From positions 32,001-96,000 of the IMG/VR virus record IMGVR_UViG_3300014205_000187: a stretch of 64,000 nt of DNA, one strand, 5' to 3'. Origin of the DNA: a virus (taxonomy: Duplodnaviria > Caudoviricetes). Every line of letters begins with the position of its first letter. Positions within the stretch are counted from its first letter, which is position 1. A program made the position numbers and the translations under genes. This document shows, in pieces, positions 20,091-41,800 of this stretch. The notes under the pieces were generated by a model. It was not told the DNA's origin, ran no database searches, and saw only the letters and a program-made list of their open reading frames with translations.

Positions 20091-20513
20091 GTGCGAACAG
20101 CTATTCTGCCAGCAAAAGCTATGATACTGGCGCGTGGCAAGTTTCAGGCATTCGAGCTGGAGCCTGGAGACCTCATACAAGCGTATGACTATAATGCTCG
20201 GCGTCCAGTAATGGCAGCAATATCGACAAATACCCCAGTCGAACCCGTCAAAAAGATTCTGGCTCCGGTGCTTCAGTTCAAAATCATACCATTTTCGCTG
20301 GTAACAAAAGCTCTGACTCCACAAGGAGAAAAGAGTCTGGCTGACGGTGCTCGACAGTTCATCGGATACTGCAACAGTAATCCTACCAAACTGCTTATAC
20401 GCACGATAGACGCTCTTATAGAGTATGATGAAATGGTAGATGCTGTACAATTAATGTGGGAATGGCCGCAATATATCTGGGTCGAAGGAATCTTAGTTGG
20501 GATTGACGCATGA
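20091..20513 (+). CDS. Free-standing degenerate Hint-domain protein
   Basis: ELEPGDLIQAYD (intein N-terminal region), LTPQG, terminal VQLM...YIWVEGILV (blocks F/G); catalytic residues absent. Confidence 0.55.
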   Translation: MRTAILPAKAMILARGKFQAFELEPGDLIQAYDYNARRPVMAAISTNTPVEPVKKILAPVLQFKIIPFSLVTKALTPQGEKSLADGARQFIGYCNSNPTKLLIRTIDALIEYDEMVDAVQLMWEWPQYIWVEGILVGIDA

Positions 20514-22108
20514 CGCACGACATAATAAATCAACTAACTGCCATATATATTCGTGACCCTGACGAAGGCGAAGCCATAGCCAGAGAGTTCGGACTCTGGG
20601 AATCTTTATACGAGAGTGTGTTTAAGCCTCTTCTACGGCAAGTATGTTACGAAGACGTAAATCGCTTCATCGAGTATATTTTCGTAGACCCTGAAACTCG
20701 TGGAGCTGTTGAACAGCAAGACTTTCACGAAGAGTGGCAGCAACTCATTACTGACCACGATAGAGTTTTAATCGCTGCTCCCAGAGGTCATGGAAAGTCC
20801 TATCAAAACATTGGTAGAGCTATATGGGAGCTTGGCCGCAATCATAACCTGAGAATTAAAATCCTTGGTTCAGGTGACGATAAAGCCAAAGAAATCCTCG
20901 GTCTCATCCGAGAGAACATCGCAAAAAACCCCAAAGTTCAAGAGATATTTCCTACTTTACAAATTGATGTTGCCAGAGGAGATACTCAGACCAAGTTCTT
21001 CGTGGTGCGCGACATCATGCAAAGAGACGCCTCGGTCGAAGCCTCTGGTGTTCTATCGGCTGGTGCTGGTGGTCGTGCAGACTTACTTATCTGCGACGAC
21101 GTTGTAGACCTCAAAAACTCCGTTATCAATCCGGTTCTGCGCGAACAAGTCATCAACGCTGTCAAAGAGACCTGGTTCTCTCTGGTATCTGCTTCAGGTA
21201 AAATTGTCTGGATATGCACACCTTACCACGTTGCCGATGCCAGTCATAATCTCAGAGACACTGGAGTATTCAAAGTTTGGTGGACTCCAGCTATCACAAT
21301 CACTCGACATTTTGATGATGACGGCAATGAGATCATCGATGAAGAGACTCAACAGCCAAAAGTCACAAAGACTATCCTGTGGCCGGACAAATGGAGTGAA
21401 GAAAAACTCAAAAAACGTGAACAGGAAGTCGGTTCGAGAGTTTTTGCCCGACAGTATCTTCTCAATGCAATGTCGGACGATGAACGCACATTCCCTGAAG
21501 TCTCCCTGGAAAAGAGTTTTGATCGAACGAGACGTTACATTGGCGAAGATATTGACCCTGAATGGCCTACTTTTGGTGGCGTAGATTTGGCTTCAGCTCT
21601 GGGTAAAAAGAATGCCTGGACAGTTATCTGGACTCTGGCAAGAAGTCCTCATGACAATCGATTATATCTAAAAAATCTGTATCGAAAACGAATGAAGTTC
21701 CCGGAAATAATGAGGACTTTGAAAGAACAATATCTGGAACAGCACTGGCAGCTTTGTCTTGTGGAAAACAATCAATTCCAGCAAGCTGTTATCGACGCCG
21801 CCGAAGAAGTCGATAAATCAATACCTATCGAATCGTTCACCACGGGCATCAATAAAGCTAACGAGTTAGTTGGATTACCAGGTATGGCAGTAGCTTTTGA
21901 GAAATCTCAGTTTGCGATACCTGCGGCTTTATTTCCATTGGACCCTGACGATACATCACCTCTTGCTATTTTGATGAATGAACTTCGGACACATCCAGGA
22001 GGAGAGTTCAGTGATACTGTTATGGCTCTTTGGTTTGCTTGGATAGCAGCCCAAAGAAGCAGTGGTGACTTTGAGGACGCCTATATGGAAGCTGTAAAGT
22101 CTATATAG
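20510..22108 (+). CDS. terL: Terminase large subunit
   Basis: APRGHGKS, GGRADLLICDD, CTPYH, GVDLA nuclease motif, VENNQFQ, DTVMALW. Confidence 0.93.
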   Translation: MTHDIINQLTAIYIRDPDEGEAIAREFGLWESLYESVFKPLLRQVCYEDVNRFIEYIFVDPETRGAVEQQDFHEEWQQLITDHDRVLIAAPRGHGKSYQNIGRAIWELGRNHNLRIKILGSGDDKAKEILGLIRENIAKNPKVQEIFPTLQIDVARGDTQTKFFVVRDIMQRDASVEASGVLSAGAGGRADLLICDDVVDLKNSVINPVLREQVINAVKETWFSLVSASGKIVWICTPYHVADASHNLRDTGVFKVWWTPAITITRHFDDDGNEIIDEETQQPKVTKTILWPDKWSEEKLKKREQEVGSRVFARQYLLNAMSDDERTFPEVSLEKSFDRTRRYIGEDIDPEWPTFGGVDLASALGKKNAWTVIWTLARSPHDNRLYLKNLYRKRMKFPEIMRTLKEQYLEQHWQLCLVENNQFQQAVIDAAEEVDKSIPIESFTTGINKANELVGLPGMAVAFEKSQFAIPAALFPLDPDDTSPLAILMNELRTHPGGEFSDTVMALWFAWIAAQRSSGDFEDAYMEAVKSI

Positions 22109-22173: not shown

Positions 22174-23943
22174 ATGGCTACTCCAATTGGAACATACGCA
22201 AGTTCGACAGGCAAAGATGATCTCATAAGTGCGCCTTTCTGGGCTAAAAAGCTCGGTAGAACATTCAAGGCTCTCTTTAACCCAGATTCCCCTACAGCTA
22301 TGCACCCTGCCTCTGAACCTCGTGACTCTCTGGTCATGACAGGTTTGACCAATGCAGATTCTCTAGCTTCTATGGCTAATGCCTGGAGAGTCCATCAAAC
22401 TCGAAAATCTGTCTATCAGGACATCGAACGGATGGATTCTGAAGATGAGATGGTGGCAACAGCTCTCGATATTATAGCCGACTGTTCTGTATCTTATACC
22501 GATACCAGCGGATTCCACTTCAAGATTCGATCTGATGATGCTGAAACTCAAAAAGTACTCCACGCTCTCGAAAAAAGACTCGATCTGCACAATGAGATTT
22601 GGCAAATATGCAGAGATATGGTGAAGAATGGTAACGATTTCCGAGAAGTGGTCATAGATAGACAGACAATGAAGATCGTTGCGTTCAAACAGACCATCTC
22701 TTATCAGATATACCCTAAAACCAACAAACGTGGAGATAAGCTGCCTGGCTGGGTAGTCAAAGAAGACGGCGACATCTACATGTCCAACGGCAAAGAATTG
22801 GAGCTTGAGGAGTGGCAGATTTGTCCATTCATCTTCGGTTCCAAAAAAGGTTTCCTGGCATCCCCACCTCTTGCGGCTGCTCGTAGAAACTGGATTCGTC
22901 TGACAAAGATGGAAGATGGTATGGCTGTAGCTCGACTTATCAGAGCTTACGACAAAATGGTTCACAGGATTCCGGTCAAGCCCGAAATGCCTGTAACCGA
23001 CATCATGAATCGAATCAGGATGTATAAAGACAGCATCAGCAAGAGGAGAATCCTCGACAGCGATGGTATGATGACGCAGGTTGACAATAACCTGGACGTT
23101 CAAACAGACTTTTATCTGCCGGATGACGGCTCCGGTCGAGGTGGAGTCGATCTACTCTCAGCAAATAACACTCAGCTTGGAAACTTGAATGACATTATTT
23201 ATCATCGAGAAAAACTCCTCACCCGTCTTCAGGTTCCTATCGCATATTTGCAGATCACCACGGCTCAGAAAACTCACATAGCTTCTGGAGCATCGTCTCA
23301 GAAAGCCGATGTAGAGATTCAATTTGCTCGTATGCTTCGACGTGTACAGCGTCAACTTCTCAAAGGAATCCATCGACTTTGTGATCTGGAATTGATGCTC
23401 AATGGTATTACTCCTGAGCGTGGTAGCTACAAAATCGAAGTCACTGAGATCAATACTGTAGACCTCAAAAAAGATGCCGACATTGAACTCACTTATGCTC
23501 AGGCAGCCGTGTTCTTCGTGGAAGCGTTCGGAGCACTACCTCCTGAACTCATCGCTGAAAAGTTCATGCATCTTGATAACGATCAGCAAAAACTTCTGGA
23601 TACATTCCTGAAAACCAGCGGTGCCAGACTCACAGAGGCCAAGATTAAAGGGGCTGAAGCTGCTGGACAGCCTAAACCTGCTCCTGGGTCTGATGCTCTA
23701 CCGAAAAAAGGCACTGGAAACTCTACAAAAAATAGAGCAGCCAGGAGTGGAGAACAAAAAGGCACCAAACAAAGTATCCCTCTGGAAGCCTTTGTTGACG
23801 TTATGTATGATCTCGCTGAGGGCATAAATGAAGACTTCAGAAATCAAGGCATAGAAGTCCCTGAGTTGGACGAAAGCCATAGGAATGTGATTCGAGCAAA
23901 CCTGGCCTCCATAATTCAACGCGATAATTTGGTTCTTGAGTAA
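22174..23943 (+). CDS. Portal protein, T4 gp20-like
   Basis: ALDIIAD, RLTKMEDGMAVARLIRA, DFYLP, DIIYHREKL...LQVP, EIQFAR; directly follows TerL. Confidence 0.88.
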   Translation: MATPIGTYASSTGKDDLISAPFWAKKLGRTFKALFNPDSPTAMHPASEPRDSLVMTGLTNADSLASMANAWRVHQTRKSVYQDIERMDSEDEMVATALDIIADCSVSYTDTSGFHFKIRSDDAETQKVLHALEKRLDLHNEIWQICRDMVKNGNDFREVVIDRQTMKIVAFKQTISYQIYPKTNKRGDKLPGWVVKEDGDIYMSNGKELELEEWQICPFIFGSKKGFLASPPLAAARRNWIRLTKMEDGMAVARLIRAYDKMVHRIPVKPEMPVTDIMNRIRMYKDSISKRRILDSDGMMTQVDNNLDVQTDFYLPDDGSGRGGVDLLSANNTQLGNLNDIIYHREKLLTRLQVPIAYLQITTAQKTHIASGASSQKADVEIQFARMLRRVQRQLLKGIHRLCDLELMLNGITPERGSYKIEVTEINTVDLKKDADIELTYAQAAVFFVEAFGALPPELIAEKFMHLDNDQQKLLDTFLKTSGARLTEAKIKGAEAAGQPKPAPGSDALPKKGTGNSTKNRAARSGEQKGTKQSIPLEAFVDVMYDLAEGINEDFRNQGIEVPELDESHRNVIRANLASIIQRDNLVLE

Positions 23944-24705
23944 ATGATTGAGATTATCAACGGTGACTGCGTGGCCGAGATGGAAAAACTCGGCAAACAA
24001 TCTGTCAATTGCATAGTCACATCTCCCCCTTACAACTTCGACATCAACTATAATGAATACGATGATGGCATGCCCCGAGACAAATACTTAGACTGGCTCG
24101 TAGACGTGGCTCATTCGATGCACAAGGTCTTAACCAAGGATGGCAGCATCTTTCTAAACGTAGGATTCAAACCCACAGACCCCTGGTTGCCTTATGATGT
24201 CTTAAATGTGTTTAGACGCACGTTCTACGCTCAGAACCAGTTCATCTGGGCCAAAAGTGCCTATGTTCCTCAAGCCAAGAAAACCTATGGACATTTTCGT
24301 CCACTCAACTCTCCACGATTCGTTAATCGATGCTGGGAGTTTGTTTTCCATCTCACCAGAACCTCTGATGTCGTTCTTGATCGATTGGCTTTAGGAGTTC
24401 CTTACGAAGATAAAAGCAACAAGCGTCGTTGGAGTAATCCTGATGATCTTCGATGTCGAGGAGATGTATGGTTCATTCCTTATGAGACAAAACAGAAAAA
24501 GGGTAAACATCCGGCAACATTCCCGCCGAAGTTGGCGATGTATGCTTATGCTCTACATGGTCTTGACCGAATAGAGCTTGCGATGGACCCGTTTGTTGGA
24601 GAAGGAAATAGTGCTGTGGCCGCTAAAAAATTGGACTTGAACTTTGTTGGTATCGACATCGACTCTTTATACTGTGAAATAGCGAGAAAAGCTGTAAAAG
24701 GCTGA
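23944..24705 (+). CDS. DNA N4-cytosine/N6-adenine methyltransferase (beta class), orphan
   Basis: TSPPY precedes HPATFP and DPFVGEG; no cognate restriction endonuclease nearby. Confidence 0.92.
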   Translation: MIEIINGDCVAEMEKLGKQSVNCIVTSPPYNFDINYNEYDDGMPRDKYLDWLVDVAHSMHKVLTKDGSIFLNVGFKPTDPWLPYDVLNVFRRTFYAQNQFIWAKSAYVPQAKKTYGHFRPLNSPRFVNRCWEFVFHLTRTSDVVLDRLALGVPYEDKSNKRRWSNPDDLRCRGDVWFIPYETKQKKGKHPATFPPKLAMYAYALHGLDRIELAMDPFVGEGNSAVAAKKLDLNFVGIDIDSLYCEIARKAVKG

Positions 24706-24740
24706 TAAAGAATACGCCCCTTCCTCATCAGCCTTTTACA
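24693..24740. terminator. Probable bidirectional terminator between the convergent MTase and peptide genes
   Basis: Perfect 14-bp inverted repeat tgtaaaaggctgat/atcagccttttaca. Confidence 0.7.
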
Positions 24741-24754
24741 TCGTCACCAACCAA

Positions 24755-24844
24755 TTATGTTATTACGAGTTTGTACTTACTGATAAAATAGGTGATTAGG
24801 ACACCTACCACAAATCCTACTGCACCAGCTCCCAGATAATACAT
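24755..24844 (-). CDS. 29-aa single-TM peptide (absent from ORF track)
   Basis: MYYLGAGAVGFVVGVLITYFISKYKLVIT; GAGGTG SD; TGcTATAAT promoter at 24871-24863. Confidence 0.7.
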   Translation of the reverse strand: MYYLGAGAVGFVVGVLITYFISKYKLVIT

Positions 24845-24921
24845 GATGCTCACCTCAAGCACATTATAGCACATTCAATAAAAAACACATCAGTAGTAAT
24901 ACCTGTTTTGTCTGAAATGGG

Positions 24922-24950
24922 TTGACAGTTAATTATCTATCCATTATACT
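24922..24950 (+). promoter_or_regulatory. Near-consensus sigma70 promoter
   Basis: TTGACA-17-TATACT. Confidence 0.85.
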
Positions 24951-24989
24951 GAAAATGTAGAACAGACATCTAACTAGGAGGCAACAAAA

Positions 24990-26021
24990 ATGAAAAGCAG
25001 AGTCGAATCACAGTTCGTTCAGCACGGAGATATTGGAGCCGTTTATGGCGGCACCATCGTTGATAACTCTTTGAGCATCGATGAAGCTCTCAAAGAATCT
25101 GGTCTCGACTGGGAAGTCGGTGTCGATAGAGTCAGAATGGCAAAGAAAACAGGTGGCAAGGTTATTCCTGGATTCTTCGCCACGTATCGAATGGACACCG
25201 GAGACCCGCTCGGAATTGTTAAGACACGATACAATCCGGTGCAGAATCGTGATGCCTTTGCATGGTTGAGATACATTATCGGTGTAGACGGAGCCTGCGT
25301 CACATCTGCCGGTGCGCTGCACAAAGGCCGATACACTTGGGTCTGTATAGACCTTGGTGGATTTGATGTCTTGCCTGAAGACGCTGTTCGGAAACGCATG
25401 CTGATTCTCAACTCACATGATGGTTCCTCGAATATCCTGGTGCAGCTCCTTCCTCATAGGATAGCTTGCCAGAACATTTTGAACTTCTCGTATGGAGTCA
25501 AAAAAGGTGACGGAGACGAAAACTATGGAGGCGGCAGCGACCCATTCAAGATTCGTCACACTGGCACAGCGATGATTAAGCTGTCTGAAATCCAGCGAGT
25601 CATCGGGGTAGCCAATACAAACTTCGATAGAGTTCAGGCATCTTTCGAGGCATTCAAATCTACTACTGTCACTCCAGAACAAAACGATGCTATCATCTAT
25701 GCCGCTCTGGGAGTGACAGACGAAGATCGAAACCTGTACAATGCCGGGGAGTTTGAGAAGACTCCTCAGTGGGTCAATCACTTCGGTCTTATCAACGATG
25801 TCATCGAAAAAGGCCCCGGCTCTGACATCAAAGGTGTCCGAGGAACGGTCTGGGGAGCATTCAACGGCATCAACAGCTACTTCGATCATATCCGAACTGT
25901 CAGAGGTTCTGAGAAGAATCCTGACAACGCCATCGAAAGCAAGTTGATGGGTCACTCGGCGAAAATGAAGGTCAAAGCATTCGATGCCTGTCTCAACGCC
26001 GTCGAGATTCTCAAAAATTAA
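24990..26021 (+). CDS. DUF932/DUF945-family phage/plasmid protein
   Basis: GLDWEV, YNPVQNRDAF, LNSHDGS, RIACQN, IRHT, GTVWGAFNG. Confidence 0.88.
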   Translation: MKSRVESQFVQHGDIGAVYGGTIVDNSLSIDEALKESGLDWEVGVDRVRMAKKTGGKVIPGFFATYRMDTGDPLGIVKTRYNPVQNRDAFAWLRYIIGVDGACVTSAGALHKGRYTWVCIDLGGFDVLPEDAVRKRMLILNSHDGSSNILVQLLPHRIACQNILNFSYGVKKGDGDENYGGGSDPFKIRHTGTAMIKLSEIQRVIGVANTNFDRVQASFEAFKSTTVTPEQNDAIIYAALGVTDEDRNLYNAGEFEKTPQWVNHFGLINDVIEKGPGSDIKGVRGTVWGAFNGINSYFDHIRTVRGSEKNPDNAIESKLMGHSAKMKVKAFDACLNAVEILKN

Positions 26022-26075: not shown

Positions 26076-26176
26076 CTGCGTACCCCTCAGAAAATTATTT
26101 CATGTGGACAGTCTAACAAGTTGACTATCTGTTAAAGTAGAACCAGCGACTTTACAGAAGCGAGGTCAGACACATC

Positions 26177-29100
26177 ATGGCGAGACTCCTTGCAAAACCG
26201 AAGTCCCGGCTTTTGGTCACTCAAGTGGCTAAGAGAAAGGATGTAAGTCCTGATACGGGAGAAAAGAAATACGGTGATGTCAAGTTCGCTGACCCGACGA
26301 ACAGTAAGTATCCGATAGACACTAAAGAACATGCAAAAGCGGCCTGGAGTTACATCAACAAGTCTAAAAACGCTGCTAAATACAGCGCGTCAGACTTGAA
26401 GGGAATCAAAAGTCGCATTAAGACCGCTTGCAAAAAGTTTGGTGTTGAAATCTCTGCGGACGAACAGGCAGTCTTCGAGCATGACCCGATGATGGAAGTG
26501 ACTCAGAGCCACTACTACATCGATGGAAGCTATGAAGACCACTGCTCCAAAATCTCGGCAGCTTTCAAGCAGTGGCGTAGGATGGAAGAGTATTGGGATT
26601 ATAGGTGGGCCAATATCCTTGGTATTACCGATACCTCGATCTACTTCTACACTACCGACTGGGATTCCACAGAGCCGGAATACTTCGAGATTGGCTACTC
26701 TGTTGAAGGTTCAAAAGTAGTCATAAACGGTGAAGTCCAACGGGTCGATGTAAAACTCATGGTTGACACTCTGGCTGTGCCTGATGACGATGATGAGTCG
26801 AGCATACAAGGGGACGACACACAAACCGGAGAGGAGCAGAAACCGATGGAAACAAAACAGGATACAGTGCCCGATGAGTCGGCCATCACTGATGCTGCGG
26901 TTGCGGCCCCTGCTCAAATTGGCAGTCCTGCGCCGAGTGGAACTGGCAAGAAAACCGATGCTGAGACCAAAGGTTCTTCCGTGGAAGACCCTGCCGCCGA
27001 TGCTAACAGCAATAAACCGGCAGATCACAGTGACGGTGAGGGGGCCAGCGAAGAGGCTGCCGATGGCAGCAGCAAAACTGCCGTGAAAGAAGCACTCGAT
27101 ACAACGGCACCGGGTTACAAGGGTGAACCGGCTGGCACCGATGGAACTCCTGAACCTTACGCTGGTCAGTCTGACAAGCGAGAAGCTCAACAGGGTGTTC
27201 CTTACGATCAGGCCGGACAGTCGATGTGCTACATCCAGAAAGTCGAAAAGACTACTGGAGCTGATGGCAAAACCCTCATGAAAATGCAGGGTATCGCCAC
27301 CAGAGGCGACATCGTAAACAAGGTAGGCCAGGTCTACCCGTTGAGCGTTTGGGAGAAGAATCTCCCTGAGATGAACAAGCAGGCTGCGAACGGCAAGTTC
27401 ATCGGAAAGCTCGAACACCCAGAAATGGAACAAGGCTTGGTAGATACCGCTATCAAGTTTGACCGATTTTACCTCCAGGGAAGTGACGTGTGGTTCGAGG
27501 CTACCGTCGTTCCCACGGAACCTCACGGTAAAAACCTCCAAGCTCTGCTCGAAGCTGGAGTTCAGGTTGACATGTCCACTCGTGGATATGGCACGTTCGC
27601 AATGCAAGATTGGCGTGGCACCGAGCGGCCCGTCATGCAAGATGACTTCGTTTGCACAGCTATCGACGCTGTGTGGCACGGAGCATCTTCCGGCTCTGGC
27701 GTGAAGTCCACTTCTTACCAGAGCGACCCTAATCTCGAAAAAGGAGAGCAAAAACCAGTGGAAACCAAAGACACCACCACTCAATCCGATGTTCAGGTAA
27801 AGGCTGCTGCAATCAGAGCCAGTGCCGAACTCAAACAGACTAGGGCCGCTCTTCTGGGCGATGCCGGTCTGAACGAACTGGGAATGAAGGCTTACCAGAC
27901 TGCACTTGATAAGTGCGATAGTCTGGAAAACCTCATCGTTACCAGTGAGACGCTGCTTCCGCACCTTCAGGCTACATTCCCTGCGGCCACAGGTGACGCT
28001 CAGGAAGTGACCCAGAGCGCAACTTACAGTCCTACATTCTTCAAAAAGCAGAATCAGGAAGAGGCTGCTCCGCAGAACGTGGGCGAATTGCTTGACCGTA
28101 TGGTAGCCGATCTGCCGGACCATTACGAAGGTCAAGCCGTCAATCCCAATTTGCCGAGCCACTTCAGCTCCCCTCGGGCAGCGTGTAAGAGGCTCATGGT
28201 CAATATCGCACGGGAACAGCAAGGTTCATTCTCCGGTCGCAACGCCGCTCTCGGCCTCTTGGCTCTTGAGCAGGGCAAGATTGACCGGGCGCAGGATATT
28301 CTCTTGCAAAGCCTCGCAACCGGCGCAACCATCGCTGATGGAAACGCTGATGGTGGTGGTGCTCCTTTGAGCAACTACCTCATCTTCCCGTTGGTCAGAC
28401 GTGTATTCCCCATGTATATCATGGGTATGATCGCTAGCATCCAGCCGCTCGACAGGCCGGAAGGTAAGATTTTCTTCCTCGATCAGTACCGTGTAGACGG
28501 TTCTGCTAACGAGACAAGAATCGACCTGAACACTTCGAGCAATCCGTTCAATTCTTCGTTTGCTGACAACGCCACTGAAGGTTCGGCGGCTATGCAGATG
28601 AGACTCCGCTTGACGAGTGCCCTGGTTCAGGCGCATACCAAGAAATTGGGCGCGTCCTGGTCACTCGAAGAAATGCAGGATTTGAGAGCCTACCACGGTC
28701 TCGATGCTGCACAGGAGCTTCTCGGAGGCGTCGCTCGTGAGATGGCTTTGGAGTGGAACAAGGAAGTCCTGGACGACATGCTGGCTCAGGCTACAGCGTC
28801 CGCTTTGACCTTCGGAACTACCATTCCGGCTACTGGGTTTACTCAGCAGAAGGATTGGGACGAGTATCTGTGGGTCTACCTCAACAAGCTCGATTCGGCC
28901 ATTTTCTCAAAGAGAAATGGGGCTATGACTCACATCATAGCTGGCGTCGATGCTGCTCTCGCAATGAGCAAGTCCATGCGCGGCGTCTTTACGTTCAACG
29001 CCAACGATGATGGCGTTGATGGAGAGATTTATCCGGGAACCACGTTCTACGGAACAGTCTCTATCCCTGGTGCTGGTAAGTATAAAGTTCTGAGAACGAA

Positions 29101-29341
29101 CTTCTGGTCTACCGGCACGACAAACGGCTCGAAGATTCTTGGTCTCCGCAAGGGTGCCGAGTGGTCTGATACGCCGTACATCTGGGCACCATACACCGAC
29201 TATGTGACTCCGATGCTTACTGACCCGGCTGACTTCAGCCAGAAGCAGGGCATCATCAGCAGAGCCGCAAAGAAGGTCGTGGTCGCAGACGCGATGGGGA
29301 CCATCACCGTCAACAGCGGCGTGGGCGAGCTTGTCAGCTAA
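26177..29341 (+). CDS. Head polyprotein: DUF6582-like domain + prohead protease (gp21-like) + scaffold + major capsid protein (gp23-like)
   Basis: YGDVKFADP..KYPID; N..GQVYP, GKLEHP, MSTRGYG; FPLVRRVFP, QPLDRPEGKIF, KLGASWSLEEMQDLRAYHGLDA, WAPY. Confidence 0.9.
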   Translation: MARLLAKPKSRLLVTQVAKRKDVSPDTGEKKYGDVKFADPTNSKYPIDTKEHAKAAWSYINKSKNAAKYSASDLKGIKSRIKTACKKFGVEISADEQAVFEHDPMMEVTQSHYYIDGSYEDHCSKISAAFKQWRRMEEYWDYRWANILGITDTSIYFYTTDWDSTEPEYFEIGYSVEGSKVVINGEVQRVDVKLMVDTLAVPDDDDESSIQGDDTQTGEEQKPMETKQDTVPDESAITDAAVAAPAQIGSPAPSGTGKKTDAETKGSSVEDPAADANSNKPADHSDGEGASEEAADGSSKTAVKEALDTTAPGYKGEPAGTDGTPEPYAGQSDKREAQQGVPYDQAGQSMCYIQKVEKTTGADGKTLMKMQGIATRGDIVNKVGQVYPLSVWEKNLPEMNKQAANGKFIGKLEHPEMEQGLVDTAIKFDRFYLQGSDVWFEATVVPTEPHGKNLQALLEAGVQVDMSTRGYGTFAMQDWRGTERPVMQDDFVCTAIDAVWHGASSGSGVKSTSYQSDPNLEKGEQKPVETKDTTTQSDVQVKAAAIRASAELKQTRAALLGDAGLNELGMKAYQTALDKCDSLENLIVTSETLLPHLQATFPAATGDAQEVTQSATYSPTFFKKQNQEEAAPQNVGELLDRMVADLPDHYEGQAVNPNLPSHFSSPRAACKRLMVNIAREQQGSFSGRNAALGLLALEQGKIDRAQDILLQSLATGATIADGNADGGGAPLSNYLIFPLVRRVFPMYIMGMIASIQPLDRPEGKIFFLDQYRVDGSANETRIDLNTSSNPFNSSFADNATEGSAAMQMRLRLTSALVQAHTKKLGASWSLEEMQDLRAYHGLDAAQELLGGVAREMALEWNKEVLDDMLAQATASALTFGTTIPATGFTQQKDWDEYLWVYLNKLDSAIFSKRNGAMTHIIAGVDAALAMSKSMRGVFTFNANDDGVDGEIYPGTTFYGTVSIPGAGKYKVLRTNFWSTGTTNGSKILGLRKGAEWSDTPYIWAPYTDYVTPMLTDPADFSQKQGIISRAAKKVVVADAMGTITVNSGVGELVS

Positions 29342-29361: not shown

Positions 29362-29402
29362 AAAGAAAAAGGCTCCCTGGAAACAGGGGGTCTTTTCTTT
29401 TT
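29362..29402 (+). terminator. Rho-independent terminator after the capsid gene
   Basis: ggctccctg gaaa cagggggtc followed by a T tract. Confidence 0.85.
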
Positions 29403-29424
29403 CATTTATGCTATAATGAGAGCT

Positions 29425-29628
29425 ATGAACAGGTATGTATTCAATTCGGGCAACGCTCCTATCCAGTTTGCTGGTCGCTCAATTCCTGCCAGAAATTATT
29501 CAACCTTAACTGCTGAAGAAGAGCAAAGATTTCGAGCAGGTTTAGTTGAAGTAGCCATCGAAGGTGACGAGCAATTCCCGGACCTGTGGGTACGGAATAC
29601 CCCAGAAAGAATACCCAATCCATTATAA
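29425..29628 (+). CDS. Small hypothetical protein (probably leaderless)
   Basis: TGcTATAAT at 29409-29417, with ATG 7 nt downstream. Confidence 0.6.
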   Translation: MNRYVFNSGNAPIQFAGRSIPARNYSTLTAEEEQRFRAGLVEVAIEGDEQFPDLWVRNTPERIPNPL

Positions 29629-29641
29629 GGAGTTTACGAAC

Positions 29642-30007
29642 ATGGCAACTGTAGGTACTAATTTCCAAGACGCAATTAGAGACATAACCAAGTGGATAGC
29701 TGCGGCTACTTCCAAGGTTATCGAACTCACAAAAGCGGGTTCAACAGATGAGGCAGCTTTGCTGTTGGCAGACATCAACGAAGTCGAAACGACTTACTTG
29801 AACGTCATCAACAGTTTCCTGCCTACCAAACCCATTGAGCCTGTGCCTTCCCTTTGGAACCTTGGGAAGTTTGTCACTTGGCTGGCAAGGAACATTTCCT
29901 GGCTGAATGTCCTGGTGGTGTTGACATCAGATGTCAATCCATTCGATGAAGCCAAGGCTCTGGCTCGGGCTGTTGCAACAAAATGGGGCTTTGCTGTCCC
30001 GAAATAA
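29642..30007 (+). CDS. Hypothetical protein
   Basis: AAGGAG SD. Confidence 0.65.
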   Translation: MATVGTNFQDAIRDITKWIAAATSKVIELTKAGSTDEAALLLADINEVETTYLNVINSFLPTKPIEPVPSLWNLGKFVTWLARNISWLNVLVVLTSDVNPFDEAKALARAVATKWGFAVPK

Positions 30008-30050
30008 TCTTATCTGGGGTATTCCACTATCAAAATATAAGGAGGTCACT

Positions 30051-30959
30051 ATGCGTTATTGGATGCTCGTAATACTCTTGTGTTTTGCTATGCCTGCAAT
30101 AGGAACACTTGATAAATTGCCTAAGTCGCATGATGCTCATGTAGCTGTAATCACCAAAGAAAAAAGTCGTGTGCCTGAAGAGCCTGATTGGTCTACCAGA
30201 TCGGGCACAATCAAATACGCTCTTACTCAAAAAGACAATACCAGGCTGACCCTGGACGCTGTGACAGTTTCAAGTATCTACAAAGAGCCTCAAAGCTATT
30301 TTGTGATTCGAGACTGGTATATAAATAGTCCTCCTATAATTGTTAATCTGACTGCGCCTGTCAAACTTTTACCTGGACAAACCATCGACATTACAGGCAC
30401 CCTTAAAACACTGTCTGATGGACGAAAGATACTTGAGTACCCAACTATCTTAGGTTATACAGATCGAAAAGGTGTTCTATTAACTCATGGTGGGCCTTTA
30501 ACAAAAGGCACATGGGCTATGACTCCTTGGCCGTATAAACAGCAATTAGCTTCTGTAAGCGTTCCAAAAATACCAGTAAGTAGTGGAGTGGCCGCTTACA
30601 GAGCCCCAGAAACCCTAAAAACAGCCACCATGCCTATCGAAGATATAAAAACGTATGATACTGTGGCAGAATTACTTAAAGCTGCACCACCTGAAGGTCA
30701 ATGGATTCGATTAAGAAATAGAGGAGTATACACTTCAGCCTCCGATGATTTAGGTCATTATGTAGTCGCTACCGATGAAAAAGAAGATGACAAAATGATC
30801 TTGATCTACACCACTACAAAACCTAAATCCAAAATGTCAAAACTGGCCCGTGTCATAGGAAAGATTCATCTCATAAAGGATATACGAGTAATCGTTACAG
30901 ACACCGGACCGAGTTTTGATGCTCAATTAGGAACCGGCTCAGTATGGGTCATAGACTAA
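30051..30959 (+). CDS. Secreted protein with tandem OB-fold-like repeats
   Basis: Signal peptide MRYWMLVILLCFAMPA; PGQTIDITGTL; AAGGAGG SD. Confidence 0.6.
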   Translation: MRYWMLVILLCFAMPAIGTLDKLPKSHDAHVAVITKEKSRVPEEPDWSTRSGTIKYALTQKDNTRLTLDAVTVSSIYKEPQSYFVIRDWYINSPPIIVNLTAPVKLLPGQTIDITGTLKTLSDGRKILEYPTILGYTDRKGVLLTHGGPLTKGTWAMTPWPYKQQLASVSVPKIPVSSGVAAYRAPETLKTATMPIEDIKTYDTVAELLKAAPPEGQWIRLRNRGVYTSASDDLGHYVVATDEKEDDKMILIYTTTKPKSKMSKLARVIGKIHLIKDIRVIVTDTGPSFDAQLGTGSVWVID

Positions 30960-30969
30960 GGAGGCTTTC

Positions 30970-32091
30970 ATGCGAAGATTAACATATCTACTACTCCCTT
31001 TACTTATTCTGTGTAGTCTGGCTTCTTATGCACAGTTTGAGTCTCCTCCTGGTGGAGGTGGAGACCCGTTTCCAAATACTCCTCCTGAAACACATTCAAT
31101 AAATTGGGCGAAGACAATAGCCGATGGCACAGCTTTACCCGATACTGTTTCAGATAAAGTTGTCACGCGCACATATCCAGGTTGGAGTTATTTTTATATA
31201 TCTGAACCTGGCAGAAGTAGTGGTATTCGCGTTGAATCCCCCGCATGTCCTGACCCTGGAGACACGATAACTATTGTCTCGGGCACAATGGCTTCTGCTG
31301 GGGATGAACGCTATATTGCTTCAGCTTCTTATACCATCACTTCTCATAATACGTTTCTCAAACCTCTTGGGATGACCAATAAAACATTCGGAGGGGGAGA
31401 CTTTTTATACGACCCAGGCCCTCCTATAACTGGTCAAAAAGGTTTCTGGGATGGCTCTGGTCTAAATAACACAGGCAACCTTGTCAGAGTATACGGCAGA
31501 GTCACCGAGATAGATGCCCGTCCAATTCCTCTTTACTGCTTCATTGATGATGGCTCCGGCGTAGACATGGCTATAGACCTGGAAGTATCTCCAGGGCAAG
31601 CTATTCCTTTCACTTATCAAGTTGGAGATTATATCGCTGGAATAAATGGTATAAGCTCTATCATCACTGTAGATGATTGGATGGTTAGAACCTTAAAACC
31701 TTCAGCTCCTACTGTGGTTTTAGCCAAAAATGTAGGACAAGCAGACCCCGCACATAAAAAACCAATTAAGTTTACAGCCAATTTCAGTGAACCTGTTACA
31801 GGTTTCACTAATACCGATGTACATTTATCTGGAACAGCGCAACCAACATCATGCACTGTAACAGACAATGGAGATCACAAAACTTACATAATCGAAGTAT
31901 CTATTGCCAAACAAAATGGCACAGTAGTTATTCAGGTTCTTTATGGAGCTGCCACAGGAGTAGACAATAATCTAAGTTTGGCTGCTCCAATGAACAGTTC
32001 GCTTACCTATCAGGGTTACATTCCTTTTCGTGTTATCAATAAAAGATTAGGCGTAGGGACAGGTAGATACCAACGAAAACCGCTAAAATAG
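30970..32091 (+). CDS. Secreted OB-fold + Ig-like domain protein
   Basis: Signal peptide; FYISEPGRSSGIRV, KPLGMTNK, GLNNTGNLVRVYGRV, FIDDGSG; Ig-like FSEPVTGF. Confidence 0.65.
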   Translation: MRRLTYLLLPLLILCSLASYAQFESPPGGGGDPFPNTPPETHSINWAKTIADGTALPDTVSDKVVTRTYPGWSYFYISEPGRSSGIRVESPACPDPGDTITIVSGTMASAGDERYIASASYTITSHNTFLKPLGMTNKTFGGGDFLYDPGPPITGQKGFWDGSGLNNTGNLVRVYGRVTEIDARPIPLYCFIDDGSGVDMAIDLEVSPGQAIPFTYQVGDYIAGINGISSIITVDDWMVRTLKPSAPTVVLAKNVGQADPAHKKPIKFTANFSEPVTGFTNTDVHLSGTAQPTSCTVTDNGDHKTYIIEVSIAKQNGTVVIQVLYGAATGVDNNLSLAAPMNSSLTYQGYIPFRVINKRLGVGTGRYQRKPLK

Positions 32092-32109
32092 ACTGAGAGG
32101 TAATAACTG

Positions 32110-33198
32110 ATGACTTCTATACAAGGTCAAATATCCTGGCTACCTGGTCTTCTACAAAGCAGTGAAGATGGTTCTGGACTAACAGGGGTGCTTTATAATG
32201 CGTCAGGTCTTGTAATTACATACCAAAAATTAGACGGCCCGGTAGTAACCAAAACTTTAACGGCTGAGGATTGGGTTGAAGGTATTGACGGTTCGTATAG
32301 TATTAAGTTTTCAGCAGCAGAACTTGATACTTTAGGGCTTTTTAGCTATTGGATGGAATATCCCACCTCAACTACATACCCAGGAGCCGTTACAGTTATC
32401 GTTCCTATCCCTACGGATGTGGCAACAGAAACCGCTCTTGATGCCGTAAAAACAGTCGTAGACGCTCTTCCGACTGATGTAGCCTCATCTGGGTCTGTAG
32501 CTGCTGTAAAAGCTGTTGTAGATGCACTCCCAACTGATGTAGCCACAGGAACCGCTTTATCTTCAGTAGGCAATACTGTAAACGATATAAAAACGGCTGT
32601 GGACGCTCTGCCAACAGAAGTAACCGTAAACCCAACACCTGTAAATGTGAATGCCGGAGCCGGTTTTTCCATGAACGCTACTCAGCGACAAATCACATGG
32701 CTCCCTGTTCGATTGACAAAAAGCGCAGACAATACCGGATTAACAGGTATCACTTTCGATTCTATAACTGTGACCTATCAAAAATCTGGTGGGGCAATAA
32801 CTACAAAAATCATCGCTGTTACAGACTGGTCAGAAGGCACCGATGGTTCTTATAGTATTCGGTTTACATCTGATGAACTTGACACCCGAGGACTTTTCCA
32901 ATACTGGGTCGCTCAAGCAGCGGCTCCCACGTACGCGGGTGTGGCTCAAGTAACCGAAGCCAATTCTGGTCCAGGATTTACAGAGCGCACAGCTCGAATA
33001 CTCATCAACAATCAGCCTATCGAAGGTGCTGAAGTCTGGATTACCACAGATGCAGCCGGACTTGATATAATTGCTGGAGTCAAACGAACCAATGTCTTAG
33101 GCATCGTGGCATTCAATCTGGATGCCGGTACATACTGGATTTGGTGGCGCAAAGCTAGAGTCCTTCAAGACAACAAACAAGCATGGACGGTAGCATAA
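32110..33198 (+). CDS. Virion structural/decoration protein with a duplicated domain
   Basis: Two ~95-aa copies (GLTG..TYQK..DW.EG.DGSYSI.F...ELDT.GLF.YW) joined by VDALPTDVA repeats. Confidence 0.6.
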   Translation: MTSIQGQISWLPGLLQSSEDGSGLTGVLYNASGLVITYQKLDGPVVTKTLTAEDWVEGIDGSYSIKFSAAELDTLGLFSYWMEYPTSTTYPGAVTVIVPIPTDVATETALDAVKTVVDALPTDVASSGSVAAVKAVVDALPTDVATGTALSSVGNTVNDIKTAVDALPTEVTVNPTPVNVNAGAGFSMNATQRQITWLPVRLTKSADNTGLTGITFDSITVTYQKSGGAITTKIIAVTDWSEGTDGSYSIRFTSDELDTRGLFQYWVAQAAAPTYAGVAQVTEANSGPGFTERTARILINNQPIEGAEVWITTDAAGLDIIAGVKRTNVLGIVAFNLDAGTYWIWWRKARVLQDNKQAWTVA

Positions 33199-33199
33199 A

Positions 33200-33979
33200 A
33201 TGACAGACTTAGATATTAACGGTCAATCAGTAGCAACGACCGGCGTAACAATCGCAGATGTAAAAGAAGAGTTGGAACGCCGTAAGTTTCCTTCTATTCT
33301 GACAACTGATGATTATGTCGGAATCCTTAATGCTGCCCTACGAGAATTGAATAGGTATTCACCTATGTCAAAGTTCGTAGGATTTACGACTGTAACGAAC
33401 ATTCAGGACTATTACATATTTGACCCCGCCAATGCAACTACTTTAGGAGTGGCTGCCGGAGCTTTAGACGTTGTTGATGTATGGTGGTCTCCAGGAGGAG
33501 ACTGGTCGAGTTTGAACATCTATTCTCCAGGCTGGATAATGTTGGCTCAAATGGTGGTATTCACAGGTTCATTCTTCCATCAACCGAGTCAAATGATGAC
33601 GTTGAGACAAAAACTCGACAGTTGGAAAACACAGTTTGGCTCTCAAGGTTTCGATGTCATTGGCCCTGTAGGAGCTGCCACATCGATTCTTAGACTATAC
33701 CCTGTGCCAAAATCTGAAGCCAATGTCATTGTAGAATGCAGAATGCCATATACCCTGGTCGATATAATAGACAGCGTAAACGACATCTTTATGCAGTGGG
33801 TTGAGTACTACACGTCCGATGCTTTGGCTAATCTATACGCTACAACAGCAGGAGTAGACTTGCTCAACTTTGCTGACAGTAAAGAAGCCATGAAATACTG
33901 GGAAGGTAAAGCTCAACGATACTATACTCGTGCTTTGAACTCTCAAGCAGGTATGCAGGGTCAGGTAATGCGAGGATAA
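33200..33979 (+). CDS. Head-tail adaptor/neck protein
   Basis: Position; ALRELNRYSP, LRLYPVP. Confidence 0.6.
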   Translation: MTDLDINGQSVATTGVTIADVKEELERRKFPSILTTDDYVGILNAALRELNRYSPMSKFVGFTTVTNIQDYYIFDPANATTLGVAAGALDVVDVWWSPGGDWSSLNIYSPGWIMLAQMVVFTGSFFHQPSQMMTLRQKLDSWKTQFGSQGFDVIGPVGAATSILRLYPVPKSEANVIVECRMPYTLVDIIDSVNDIFMQWVEYYTSDALANLYATTAGVDLLNFADSKEAMKYWEGKAQRYYTRALNSQAGMQGQVMRG

Positions 33980-36111: not shown

Positions 36112-36300
36112 TTATTCTCCCGGATAAATCCGAGAGCTTCTAGGCTTTCACCAAAGACTGTAATCCCAGTCTTAGAATGTTAATTGCGGCGTTGGTGTCT
36201 CTGTCTAAAGACAACCCACAATTAGGACAAAAATGCCACCTCTCTTTAAGAGGTTTTTTAGCTCTAAAACCACAAGCTGAACAATCTTGTGATGTGTAGG
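36088..36300 (-). ncRNA. Predicted TnpB omegaRNA (scaffold + guide CCGACAGAGCACTCAAAC...)
   Basis: TnpB omegaRNAs are known to overlap the tnpB 3' end and right end; the 5' boundary here is a guess. Confidence 0.55.
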
Positions 36301-37289
36301 CTGGGTTCACACTTAGTAATATCCTACCGGCACTTTCAGCCTTGTTAGTTAATACTGAGCGGAATTGAGTCCAACTTGCATCAGAAATCGATTTAGCTAA
36401 ACAACGATTCAAAAGCATATTTTTAGTGTTGAGTTTTTCGACTATCAAAACATCATTTTCATTAACTAACTTTCGAGAAAGTTGATGAACAAAATTATGT
36501 CTACGATTTCTAATTCGTTCATGCACACGAGATATTACTTTTTTTGCTCTGCATCTCTCTTTAGAACCTTTAGGCTGCTTGAAAAGTTTTCTTTGACTTT
36601 TGGCGAGAGCCTTTTCTTCCTTGCGAAAAAATCTTGGATTATCAATAAACACGCCATCAGAGAGTGCAGCAAACTTTTCAAGTCCTACATCTATTCCAAT
36701 AGATTTGCTTGTTAGTGGCAGAATCGCAGGTTCAACCTCACAAACAAAACAGACAAACCATTTGTTATTCTGTCTTCTGATGGTGCAGGTCTTGACAATC
36801 CCGGTAATAGGTCGATGCAGTTTAATCTTAACACTACCAATCTTGGAGAGCTTGATCTTATTCTCAGAAACAGACCAACCAGATTGAGGATAAGTAAAAG
36901 AATCATACCAGTCTCGTCCTTTGAGTCTGGGATACCCAGGATTCTCTCCTGCTTTAACTCGGCGAAAAAATGCTTTGAAAGCAAGATCAACTCGCACGGC
37001 GACATTTTGAAGAACCTGAGAATGAACACTCTGAAGTTTTGTCCATGTTCCTCTAAATATCTGGAGCTTTCGTGCTTGAGCATAATAAGTAAGTCCTTTG
37101 CCCGAAAACTCATAAGTATCTTGTCTATCTGCAAGCATCCAGTTATACACATGACGGCATACATCCAGAGTTTGCTCGAAAGAACTAATCTGAGTCTTAG
37201 TCGGATATAGCCTATATTTTAAGCAAACTGTTTGCATACAAATAGTGTAACAAGTAATTGCTAAAAATGCAAGAAAAGAATAAATCTTT
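36108..37289 (-). mobile_element. Non-autonomous IS200/IS605-family (IS1341-like) element, tnpB only
   Basis: Right-end hairpin ctctcgga-ttta-tccgggag followed by TCAC; no tnpA; left boundary inferred. Confidence 0.8.
36140..37237 (-). CDS. tnpB: RNA-guided endonuclease TnpB
   Basis: KYRLYPT, GIDVGL, IVEKL, CSAC/CPNC, DRDTNAA; start placed at MQTV after TTGCAT-17-TACACT. Confidence 0.95.
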   Translation of the reverse strand: MQTVCLKYRLYPTKTQISSFEQTLDVCRHVYNWMLADRQDTYEFSGKGLTYYAQARKLQIFRGTWTKLQSVHSQVLQNVAVRVDLAFKAFFRRVKAGENPGYPRLKGRDWYDSFTYPQSGWSVSENKIKLSKIGSVKIKLHRPITGIVKTCTIRRQNNKWFVCFVCEVEPAILPLTSKSIGIDVGLEKFAALSDGVFIDNPRFFRKEEKALAKSQRKLFKQPKGSKERCRAKKVISRVHERIRNRRHNFVHQLSRKLVNENDVLIVEKLNTKNMLLNRCLAKSISDASWTQFRSVLTNKAESAGRILLSVNPAYTSQDCSACGFRAKKPLKERWHFCPNCGLSLDRDTNAAINILRLGLQSLVKA

Positions 37290-37375
37290 CTAAGTGGACA
37301 GGTATTCAGGTCTCCAATAATGTAAGCTAGTATCAGGCATACATTCGAGACTTTAACGAAAGGGGACACACGACG

Positions 37376-37975
37376 ATGCCGATTCAAAATAAAAACAACA
37401 TCCACTTGGGTCTCGGCAATCTTGAGTTGGGAGTATACACGAACGATGTATTCTCCACTTATGAAGATGTCGGTGCTATCAAATCCGAACTCAATATCAC
37501 TCACACCAGAGAGGTATTGGACTTCGAGAGTGGTCGTCCTCTGGTAACTATCCTCCAGGAAGTCATTCGAGAAAGAGTCGTCGTCACCGGCACTCTTGCA
37601 GAACTGACAGTGGCATCGCTGAAGATGGCTCTAGGCCAGGGTAACATCACAAGCGGCACCATTCCAACATTCCTTGATGGTTCCAGCACGGCCCTGAGTG
37701 GCACTCTGGCGGCAGGATTGACCGCCGTGGTGAGTGGCAACCTGCTCAAGTTTGGTGGAACTCCCACACACGCTTACGTGGGTCTGCGATTTACTCACGT
37801 CAAAGCAAACGGCAAGAGACACATCTTTGAAGGCTACAAAGCCAGTCCCAACGGAGACCTGGCTCTGCCGTTTAGAGAAGCTGACTGGAACCTATATCAG
37901 GTCAGTTTCCGCTTGCTGGCTGACACAACCAAAGCGGCTGGAGAACAGTATTACCAGTTCCTCATCGAACAGTAA
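37376..37975 (+). CDS. Major tail tube protein
   Basis: IHLGLGNL, DVGAIK, GTLAELT..LKMALG; followed by chaperone and tape measure genes. Confidence 0.8.
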   Translation: MPIQNKNNIHLGLGNLELGVYTNDVFSTYEDVGAIKSELNITHTREVLDFESGRPLVTILQEVIRERVVVTGTLAELTVASLKMALGQGNITSGTIPTFLDGSSTALSGTLAAGLTAVVSGNLLKFGGTPTHAYVGLRFTHVKANGKRHIFEGYKASPNGDLALPFREADWNLYQVSFRLLADTTKAAGEQYYQFLIEQ

Positions 37976-38817: not shown

Positions 38818-41800
38818 GTGTCAATCGCTATAGGAACCTCCATAGACCTTACTGGAGCTGCTACAGGACTGGGGCAGCTTACCTCAATGGTCGATACTGC
38901 GGTTGCTAACATGAACCGCAAAATGATGTCGGCTTCTGCTGGTATAGCTGCCCCTCTTGGTATTGGTGGTCCCAAAGTTGGACAAATAGCTAACGAGATG
39001 GAGAAGATGGTCGGTCTAACCGGGCGTCTAAACCAGGGTCTCGACCGAATGACCACTCTCTTCGCAGGAGGGCTTGGATTTGGTATAGCTCTTGGAGGTA
39101 TAGGTCTATTTACGGCTGCTCTCACCAGGTCTATCGAAAAAGCCAGAGAGTTCCAAACCGCTCAGATTGCTATCGCTGCTACCATTCAGTCAGCTTATAA
39201 AATAGGCCCACCTGGGGGCAAAGTAGACTGGACTACAAGCACCAATCCTGTTGATCGTGCTAGAGCATTTCAGGTAGCTCAGTTAGAAGCCTCTAAACTC
39301 AACTCAGAGATCATTCGACGCCAAGCTAAAAACATCCTCACATACGAGGAAGAACTTCAGGCTTTCCAATCGTCTCTCGCTCCTGGTGCTCGTAAAGGTC
39401 TCAGCACAAAACAAGTCTTAAACATATCCGAACAAGCTGCTATCGTTGCTAAATCCATCGGTCTACGAGGTGAAGAAATTGCCAACGCCTCCAGACTACT
39501 CATGGGAGGTGGCGTTAATGTAGCCAGGTCTACGATTGGTCGTGTTCTCGGTGTATCTAACGCCGATATTACAGGTAAAACCGGGCCTGAGTTCGAGAAG
39601 TTTATCAACGAACGCCTCAAAGGTTTCAAAGCCGCTCAACAGCCATTTGCCGTGTCCATCGAAGGTATCATGTCCACTCTACAAGCTCAATTGGACGTAT
39701 TCCTGGCATCTGTCGGCGACAAACTGATGAAACGAATCTCCGGTTCTATCCAGAGCTTAGGTAAAACTTTAGAAGGTCCTGGAGCTGAAAAGTTTGGAGA
39801 TATGCTTGCTGATCTATTCGAGTCCGTGGCAAAAGGTATCGAATCCATAGCAAAATCTCCAGCTATTCCGATGATAATGAAGTTCATCAGTTTCTTGGCT
39901 TCTAACGGAGACAAGATTGTTATAGGGATAGCTCTCATGGCTCTCATGGGCGTTATCACAAAAGTTGGTGGGACCCTAAAAACTCTTGTAGGATGGTTCG
40001 GTGAGGTTGCTGTTGCGGCTTCTTCTGCTGCCGGAGCCGTTGATGGTCTTGCTATGGCTACGAACTCCATAGGGGGCACTGGAGTGGCAATGGCTGGACG
40101 AGGTGGTAGAGGTGCTGCTGGACGTATGACGACAGCCAGTGAAATAGCCACAGCAGCCGAAGCCGAAGTTATAGCCGCCAACAGAGCTGCTGAATCCGCT
40201 TTTGTGAGTGGCAAATGGGGCGGTGGCAAAGGTAATGTGGCAGCCGGAGCCAGAGGCGCATTCCGTGACCCTACAACAGGCAAGTTTATCAGTAAGAGCG
40301 AAGCTGCTTTAAGAACCAGTAGAGGTAGAGCTTTGGCTGGTGAAGTTCAGATGGACGCATTCTCCAATGTTCTTGGAGCTGACTATCTTACTGGAAAGAT
40401 TCCCGGTGTCATGGGGCCTATGCAACAGGCCACACTAAGAGAAAGAATTGTAAAAACATTCGGCACCGAAGGAGCTATGGCTAAGAAAATGCTGGGTCTT
40501 GCCGAAACGAACCCAGCAATGGCTACAAAAATAATGGGGGCCATGTCTGTCGGCGGCAAGATGGGTCAATCTGCTCTAAAGGCTTTCATTGGCACTCAAA
40601 TTGCTGGTATGGTTCTGCCCGAAAAAATAACGGGTAGTGCTGCCTGGGACATCGGAACAAACGCCTTTATTGGCGGTTCAGCGATTAAACAGCTTCTCCC
40701 TTCTATAGGCATGGGAACTCTAACAGGTGCCGGTGCGACACTGGGAACAGGGGCCGGTGCTCTTCTTGCTGGGGGAGGTGCTGGAGCTGCCGCCGCTATC
40801 AGTTTACCTTTAATTGCTGCAATCGGAGGAGGTCTTATCGGCACCAAGATTCGTCAAAGTGTGTGGAGTGGTATCGATGAGCCAGGTACAGCAGCTAAGA
40901 TAGCAGCCGGACGAAAATGGCAAGAAAAACAGATTCCTTTAGCGGTCAAGCATGAAGACCTTCTGACCCGTAAAAGAGAAATTGAAAAAGCAATTAAGTC
41001 TGGAGGTGGGTTTGAACGCGAAACACCAAACGAAATGCGGGCTTATAACCCACAACATTGGCTTGGTGACACCACTTTCGGTTACATGGAAGAAGGCTTC
41101 GGCACTACAAAAGAAAAAGGCACTGGATTTTCTCCTACACAACTAAAAAAATCCCTTGCCTATATAAACGCCCAACTCAAAGACACCGAAGAAGTTCAGA
41201 GAGCTGTTATCACATCTAATGCTAGAGGCGATATTGTTAAGGGTATTATAGCAAAATCGCAAACACTCCAAACCTCTGCTTCTCTTGGTTGGGGTGTTCT
41301 TCGACAAAAACAAGATATTGAATCCAGGCGTATGGCCGAACAGGCCAAACTTCTTGAACTATACAATGCGCCTGATACAGGGATACCTCTCGATAAAGAC
41401 CTGAAAACCAAATTAACTTTAGACTACTTCACTAAAGGAACCGCACTTAACAAACAGTATGGCGGTAAAAAATTATCTGCGGCTGATATGGACAAAGCTC
41501 TTACTGGAGCCGGTCAAGACCTCATGTATCAGCGTAAAACCAGAGAAATAAACGAAAAGTTTGCAAGTGAATCCCTTATCGCTGATATGCAGCGTAAACA
41601 GCTTATAGGTGGAGCTGGTCTAAAAACAATCGGACAAGAATATACATTAGGTAGACAAGCCATTGAGATTCAAATGGCTCAGTCTAAAGGCACTCTTGGA
41701 GCCGACTATAAAGCTACTCTGAATAAAGCTCTACATGCATTTGATGTCCAGTTCAATAAACCTCTAAAAGAGATTGAACAACAAATGGGTAATCTTCAGC

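Follow-up and report, generated by a model that had tools for sequence, protein, structure and literature searches.

Nested protease/scaffold genes and protease-scaffold-capsid fusions are both already known, each separately. Effantin et al. in 2010 are said to have described a tripartite protease-scaffold-capsid gene in the Salmonella phage Gifsy-2. In small actinobacteriophages a "major capsid and protease fusion protein" has been presented as a single fusion, with internal starts unmentioned (PMC7302621, PMC5513430). Among the nested genes, the head genes I and Z of Mu-like phages lie in the same frame, with an internal Val start codon and a Shine-Dalgarno (SD) sequence (PMC4378225), and the nested start of gp17/gp17.5 in the Haloferax virus HFTV1 has been located by ribosome profiling, in a study that also cites phage lambda as well as herpes simplex virus 1 (HSV-1) (10.64898/2026.09.13.751334). 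Here we describe a head gene of an uncultured phage (Duplodnaviria; Caudoviricetes) in which a T4-type protease and a T4-type capsid domain are fused and two domain junctions carry SD/start pairs that are conserved among relatives. The gene lies in a window of 64,000 nucleotides (nt), by which we mean the whole stretch of DNA analysed, positions 32,001 to 96,000 of IMG/VR record IMGVR_UViG_3300014205_000187 (a complete virus record of 106,380 bp with direct terminal repeats). In the literature searched we found no T4-type (S77 plus gp23) fusion, no nesting with the capsid protein as the internal product and no three-tier arrangement, and two queries of 50,697 phage records returned no cultured phage with a fused T4-type form.

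Putative start signals at two domain junctions

The gene is one open reading frame (ORF) in which N-terminal domains are followed by the protease, a scaffold-like segment and the capsid domain, as judged from Pfam matches and AlphaFold models. Its parts are listed below, with coordinates of the window.

26162..26166, + strand: SD (GAGGT) of the ORF's own ATG at 26177, anti-SD duplex -8.6 kcal/mol
26177..29341, + strand: head gene, a single ORF of 1054 codons with zero internal stops, full-length product P1
26222..26458, + strand: DUF6582 domain, residues 16-94 (Pfam 113.5 bits, 5.8e-33, cut-off 27.3)
26507..26773, + strand: domain X, small alpha+beta, about residues 111-199 (AlphaFold2 confidence score, pLDDT, about 90)
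26828..26848, + strand: J1 cassette, GGAGAGGAG (26828-26836), 9 nt, then ATG at 26846 (M224)
26849..27193, + strand: acidic Pro/Thr-rich low-complexity linker, ending at a conserved L-x-Q339 before Ser or Gly
27194..27721, + strand: Peptidase_S77 (gp21-type) protease, residues about 340-515, ending at an invariant Y-Q515-S
27741..27760, + strand: J2 cassette, AAGGAG (27741-27746), 11 nt, then GTG at 27758 (V528)
27761..28309, + strand: helical scaffold/delta-like segment, residues 529-711, holding conserved Q613-S, Q625-S and L-x-Q711-S
28310..29338, + strand: gp23-type HK97-fold capsid domain (Pfam Gp23 at residues 796-1036, 106 bits, 3.4e-30, cut-off 24.4)

An earlier sequence-only reading of this DNA had picked out in-frame SD/start pairs at 26846 and 27758, and both are there as it read them. 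Initiation at J1 would yield a product of 831 amino acids (aa), P2, and initiation at J2 one of 527 aa, P3. The same reading described the junctions as near-duplicated. This holds within the window, where 26834-26857 and 27746-27769 are identical at 20 of 24 nt, but the likeness is peculiar to this phage, the relatives having no such shared peptide. The near-duplication is a quirk of the lineage; what is conserved are the SD/start pairs themselves.

Conservation of the pairs in homologues was the check that the sequence-only reading had named, and both pairs proved to be conserved. The full-length fused homologues returned by a protein search number about 67, at 43-80% identity, and many lie on viral contigs of 100-115 kb; homologue DNA was taken for 59 loci and 36 distinct ORFs were kept for mapping. 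Each in-frame ATG, GTG or TTG preceded at 3-13 nt by an SD core was scored and placed on the residues of the query. There was one sharp peak at residues 220-229 (25/36 sequences) and another at residues 520-529 (31/36), which are the two junctions, over a background of mostly 0-6 per bin across the rest of the gene, while secondary peaks at residues 840-869 sit on conserved capsid residues and are uninformative. Within the closer clade the J1 site is kept in 21 of 24 sequences. SD duplexes of -8 kcal/mol or stronger precede 2.9% of in-frame codons, and 30 of 35 J2 sites stand at -7.7 or better. Going by these sequences, SD/start pairs occur at the junctions far beyond chance.

To look further out, the J2 product was searched against 1.8 billion representative proteins, which gave 49 clusters at E < 1e-30, mostly fusions of 860-1230 aa; the few short matches trace to truncation at contig ends or to an N gap. 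Among the far relatives, four fusions with 25-32% identity were examined at the DNA level. In all four a strong SD with its ATG or GTG falls exactly on the junction of protease and scaffold, and the J2-equivalent SD duplexes are these:

L064: -8.7 kcal/mol
L065: -11.7 kcal/mol
L066: -10.3 kcal/mol
L067: -8.8 kcal/mol

In three of the four the gene's own SD is weaker (-2.9 to -7.3) and its own start overlaps the end of the upstream gene, which in L064 and L065 is the portal gene. Because the four far relatives keep the pair at the same junction, J2 is a feature of the whole S77-gp23 fusion superfamily; J1 holds in the closer clade.

The spelling of the junctions indicates that selection acts there on the nucleotides. 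In 25 distinct J2 contexts the start is GTG (16) or ATG (9) and no other codon, and the Val codons at J2 are GTG in 22 of 22 cases, against 27% gene-wide. A GGAG/GAGG core is present in 24 of these 25 contexts at a spacing of 5-12 nt, encoded as Gly-Glu, Gly-Asp, Gly-Ala, Glu-Glu, Lys-Glu or Glu-Asp and in two codon phases. The upstream Gly is GGA in 13/14 (J2) and 7/7 (J1), compared with 20% in the genes as a whole. At J1, ATG or GTG is found in 16/16 distinct contexts, where the SD energies range from -8.1 to -11.6, and the upstream Glu is GAG in 24/28 (56% gene-wide). The usual J1 core is GAGGAG, coding for Glu-Glu in 13/16 contexts, a spelling used by 22% of Glu-Glu dicodons gene-wide, and one lineage encodes the core as Gly-Gly (ACCGGAGGA). 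RNA folding around the site is weaker than each gene's own average in 19/19 homologues for J1 and 33/33 for J2. In strength the internal SDs equal or exceed the gene's own, a GAGG-type SD kept in the window and 13 relatives (mean -7.35; GTGAGGTC or AAGGAG, then ATG). A ribosome binding site (RBS) predicts a Val spelled only as GTG, enrichment of GGA and GAG, and a variable phase and spelling of the core; a peptide motif does not. We also considered the junction as a T4-type x-x-E cleavage site and rejected it, the residue after Met/Val being variable (E, D, K, A, Q, N, S).

Proposed nested initiation, likely self-cleavage and their alternatives

Because selection is on the nucleotides, nested initiation is the best reading of the junctions, and the gene probably encodes a polyprotein and is, at the same time, nested in three tiers. 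Ribosomes would start at ATG 26177, at the J1 ATG 26846 and at the J2 GTG 27758, giving three proteins with a common C-terminus. P1 (1054 aa) would comprise DUF6582, domain X, linker, protease, scaffold and capsid, P2 (831 aa) everything from the linker onwards, and P3 (527 aa) the scaffold and capsid parts only, as a capsid precursor of the delta-domain type and of the size of T4 gp23. The shared capsid domain would drive co-assembly of P1, P2 and P3, with the N-terminal parts facing the procapsid interior; P1 and P2 would carry the protease into the shell as minority subunits, P1 also bringing in the N-terminal domains, and the S77 protease would trim all parts upstream of the capsid domain, so that a capsid protein of ~343 aa remains. 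These steps, from initiation and the relative amounts of the products to co-assembly and the sites of cleavage, we infer from sequence. Inside the ORF zero sigma-70-like promoters were found, which is weak evidence in favour of this reading.

Such an arrangement would answer a problem of dosage. A shell needs capsid subunits by the hundred and a small number of proteases, but a lone translation product of the ORF supplies them at 1:1; conserved internal RBSs would solve this at the level of translation. The sequence-only reading had proposed three nested products that set the protease:capsid stoichiometry. The nested products gain support from the nucleotide-level conservation of both pairs, and the internal starts may set the stoichiometry, although the ratios of the products are part of the proposal.

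Self-cleavage of the product appears very likely. Conserved motifs of the form x-x-Q followed by Ser or Gly lie at or near domain boundaries, at residues 110, 339, 515 (invariant YQS), 613, 625 and 711 (invariant L-x-Q-S), and an A-L-E698 is also present. Cleavage after the conserved Gln (339, 515, 613/625, 711) is plausible. A 16-nt repeat (26494-26509 and 28003-28018, 15/16 identical) encodes E-V-T-Q-S at residues 107-111 and again at 610-614, in both cases on a domain boundary, which fits repeated protease recognition sites ending in Gln. The J2 cassette is itself flanked by Y-Q515-S and, about ten residues past the start, by a frequent T-Q537-S, and the peptide encoded by the RBS may be cut out of the longer isoforms.

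The junction motifs could instead be peptide signals, for cleavage or docking, in a plain polyprotein cut by its own protease. The Gln motifs that flank the domains and the duplicated 16-mer coding for EVTQS agree with this, and published protease-scaffold-capsid fusions have been treated as single proteins (PMC7302621, PMC5513430). The residue after Met/Val is not conserved, however, the SD is written with varying amino acids but constant nucleotides, and synonymous choice is strongly biased to SD and GTG, all of which makes peptide signals a very improbable explanation. SD-like sequences inside genes have also been proposed to slow ribosomes, a disputed idea, and the two sites, both exactly at domain junctions, might be pause sites that help a single polyprotein to fold during its translation, with no initiation at all. 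Pausing needs no start codon, yet ATG or GTG stands 5-12 nt downstream in every context, the Val is invariably GTG and the open RNA structure fits ribosome loading, so that pausing keeps a similarly slim chance. We regard it as unlikely that only J2 works (giving scaffold-capsid and full-length products), with J1 arising in one clade as a by-product of having an acidic Glu-Glu linker beside a Met. J2 is kept in all clades, the four far relatives included, J1 is strong in the closer clade alone and absent in the clade with a ChaB domain, and its mostly Glu-Glu core is easily produced by acidic linkers. Such a by-product does not readily account for the unbroken use of ATG or GTG at J1, its SD energies, its bias to GAG and GGA, the Gly-Gly spelling of one lineage or the weak RNA structure at every J1 site.

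Some observations count against nested initiation at both junctions. The relatives share ancestry, and the counts given above overstate the number of independent events. The J2 SD is missing, with the start codon present, in three relatives (L020, L025, L042) and is weak in the L039/L040 lineage, and a J1 counterpart is not evident in the distant clade with ChaB in place of DUF6582. The junctions lie in acidic, A-rich linkers, and some Glu-Glu dicodons and a weakly structured RNA are to be expected there, in part, from composition. Lastly, the J2 start is GTG in two thirds of contexts, which would be odd if P3 were the most abundant product.

Domains and genome setting of the head gene

The sequence-only reading had seen DUF6582-like, gp21-like protease, scaffold-like and gp23-like parts joined in a single ORF, and Pfam, PHROGs, AlphaFold2 and the stop-free frame all agree with it. 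The fusion is not an assembly error, the stop-free frame being conserved in relatives. Split forms of the gene, from which the ancestral gene starts could have been read, were not found among the relatives: of the apparent ones, two (P0082, P0098) lie at contig ends and in a third (P0090, locus L062) a stretch of N interrupts the gene. The apparent two-gene split at L062:1290-1305 is this N run, at the junction in a metagenome contig, and is not biological.

At the N terminus, the DUF6582 domain is preceded by a conserved peptide (M..LLAKPK in the alignment), and relatives of roughly 960 aa are devoid of DUF6582 but retain both this peptide and domain X. The DUF6582 part of the N-terminal 223 residues is modelled as helical, and these 223 residues had zero BFVD structure matches at E 0.001 or better. 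In the literature searched, no paper mentioning the DUF6582 family was found. DUF6582 is a mobile module of head polyproteins (P0078 / L073; P0049-P0055; L022-L027), N-terminal here and placed elsewhere between S78 and HK97 parts; in some relatives the J1 linker contains an additional DUF6582-like insert, and in the distant clade ChaB replaces the N-terminal DUF6582. Domain X occurs in the closer relatives aligned here and is modelled with confidence over about residues 114-195, where a helix packs against a curved sheet. The PDB structures that it matches best are cystatin-/NTF2-like with Z at most 7.9, inside the tool's range for unrelated models, and one may speculate from the model that it is a prodomain resembling a protease inhibitor.

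The Pfam match to Peptidase_S77 spans residues 355-505 (47 bits, 2.8e-12, cut-off 27), in agreement with PHROGs, where the ORF matches a head maturation protease (phrog_207, 7e-25) and a major head protein. The LEHP and MSTRGYG motifs reported by the sequence-only reading are present, and across 63 relatives H414 of the former is nearly invariant and S467 of the latter invariant; we take these to be the catalytic residues from what is known of gp21. We call the segment 529-711 scaffold-like from its position and predicted helicity. In the AlphaFold model of the last 527 residues, P3 residues 8-182 form helices split by low-confidence linkers, and the HK97 fold follows. For the capsid domain, the top Foldseek matches in the PDB are T4 gp23 and gp24 (2.6e-12), and there are PDB sequence matches to T4 gp23, in which residue 13 of gp23* is aligned to ORF residue 718. 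Because of this alignment the T4-equivalent maturation site would lie near residue 706-712, and the mature capsid protein would correspond to about residues 712-1054 (~343 aa).

Around the head gene the following features were recognised:

20510-22108: large terminase gene, upstream of the head gene
22174-23943: T4-type portal gene, upstream of the head gene
29367..29406, + strand: terminator-like hairpin, a 13-bp stem and a T tract, directly after the stop codon

The hairpin probably marks the end of a transcription unit. Portal and head genes are separated by a gene for an N6/N4 DNA methylase and a DUF932 gene (23944-26021, + strand), unlike in distant relatives, where the head gene overlaps the portal gene directly. 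A downstream scaffold gene was looked for in eight ORFs between 29564 and 36111 and in the ORF at 38818-42840, none of which had a PHROG match; Pfam gave weak Big_12 and SU10-adaptor matches in 29416-33979 and nothing else. Within the block of virion genes, but on the opposite strand, there is a TnpB-type gene (36140-37504, - strand; OrfB_IS605, Cas12f1-like TNB and HTH_OrfB_IS605 domains). Elsewhere in the window there is an SNF2-family helicase (9317-11941, + strand), whose SNF2 match (residues 17-648) holds LAGLIDADG/Hom_end homing-endonuclease domains inserted at 245-331, an arrangement suggestive of an intein or of an endonuclease insertion. In the 869-aa product of the gene at 13367-15976 (+ strand), an N-terminal domain of the uracil-DNA-glycosylase superfamily is joined with a 3'-5' exonuclease and a family A DNA polymerase.

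Other fusion lineages and comparison with known systems

In another, independent family of fusions DUF6582 has an S78 protease on one side and an HK97-type capsid domain on the other. Most of the 19 ORFs of this S78 family have an AGGAG-type core and an ATG/GTG just ahead of a delta-like helix, with the core spelled Arg-Ser, Lys-Glu or Gly-Asp. The cultured Rhodococcus phages Madraxi and Shagrat, which have S78-capsid fusions annotated as "major capsid and protease fusion protein", carry weak SDs (-5.4 and -5.8) before the Met of the delta domain. Tentatively, protease-capsid fusion genes in general might be nested, the capsid protein being made mostly with no protease attached, the RBS spacer being discarded and a third tier delivering an N-terminal module; here that module (DUF6582 and the cystatin-like domain) might be capsid cargo or a pro-inhibitor of the protease. 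The extension of internal starts to other fusion lineages is suggestive, not established, and to the cultured Rhodococcus phages it is unproven.

If nested initiation is correct, standard annotation, with its single protein call, overlooks the main capsid precursor throughout this group of uncultured phages of ~100-115 kb, and probably in other fusion lineages too. The gene would be a compact model, a single gene that should give self-maturing T4-type shells, and fusion to its N terminus would be a natural route for loading proteins into capsids. It would also link the nesting known from lambda and herpesviruses to the delta-domain assembly of HK97.

The closest counterpart of the parts themselves is T4, where gp21, gp22 and gp23 have the same gene order and the protease and capsid domains are homologous, but where three separate genes take the place of one ORF. 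T4-like cyanophages match the ORF colinearly across the three head genes. T4 gp22 is 269 aa long, and here there is a helical segment of 184 aa; the capsid domain has about 343 aa, compared to 456 in T4. The T4 protease cleaves after Glu (L/I-x-E), whereas Gln is conserved at the likely sites of this gene. P3 matches the layout of HK97 gp5, in which a helical N-terminal assembly domain, removed by the protease, is fused to the HK97-fold capsid protein; in HK97, however, gp5 is a gene of its own with a separate protease gene, whereas P3 would be an internal product.

The fusions of Gifsy-2 and the actinobacteriophages have the same order of protease, scaffold-like part and HK97-fold capsid in one frame. 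They use a ClpP- or S78-type protease and an HK97-type capsid protein, mostly in small genomes, while the gene described here is T4-type (S77 plus gp23-like), belongs to a genome of 106 kb and has extra N-terminal domains. As in the nested genes lambda C/Nu3, Mu I/Z, HSV-1 UL26/UL26.5 and HFTV1 gp17/gp17.5, an N-terminal protease is followed by an internal SD and start, here a conserved RBS, for a shorter assembly protein with the same C-terminus. In PaMx73, a Mu-like phage of Pseudomonas, the internal start is a Val codon, as at J2 (PMC4378225). The protease form is the minority species in those systems and would be so here. In lambda, Mu, HSV-1 and HFTV1 the nested product is scaffold only and the capsid gene is separate, whereas here the shared C-terminus is the capsid protein, the protease is of the S77 type and two internal starts would make three tiers.

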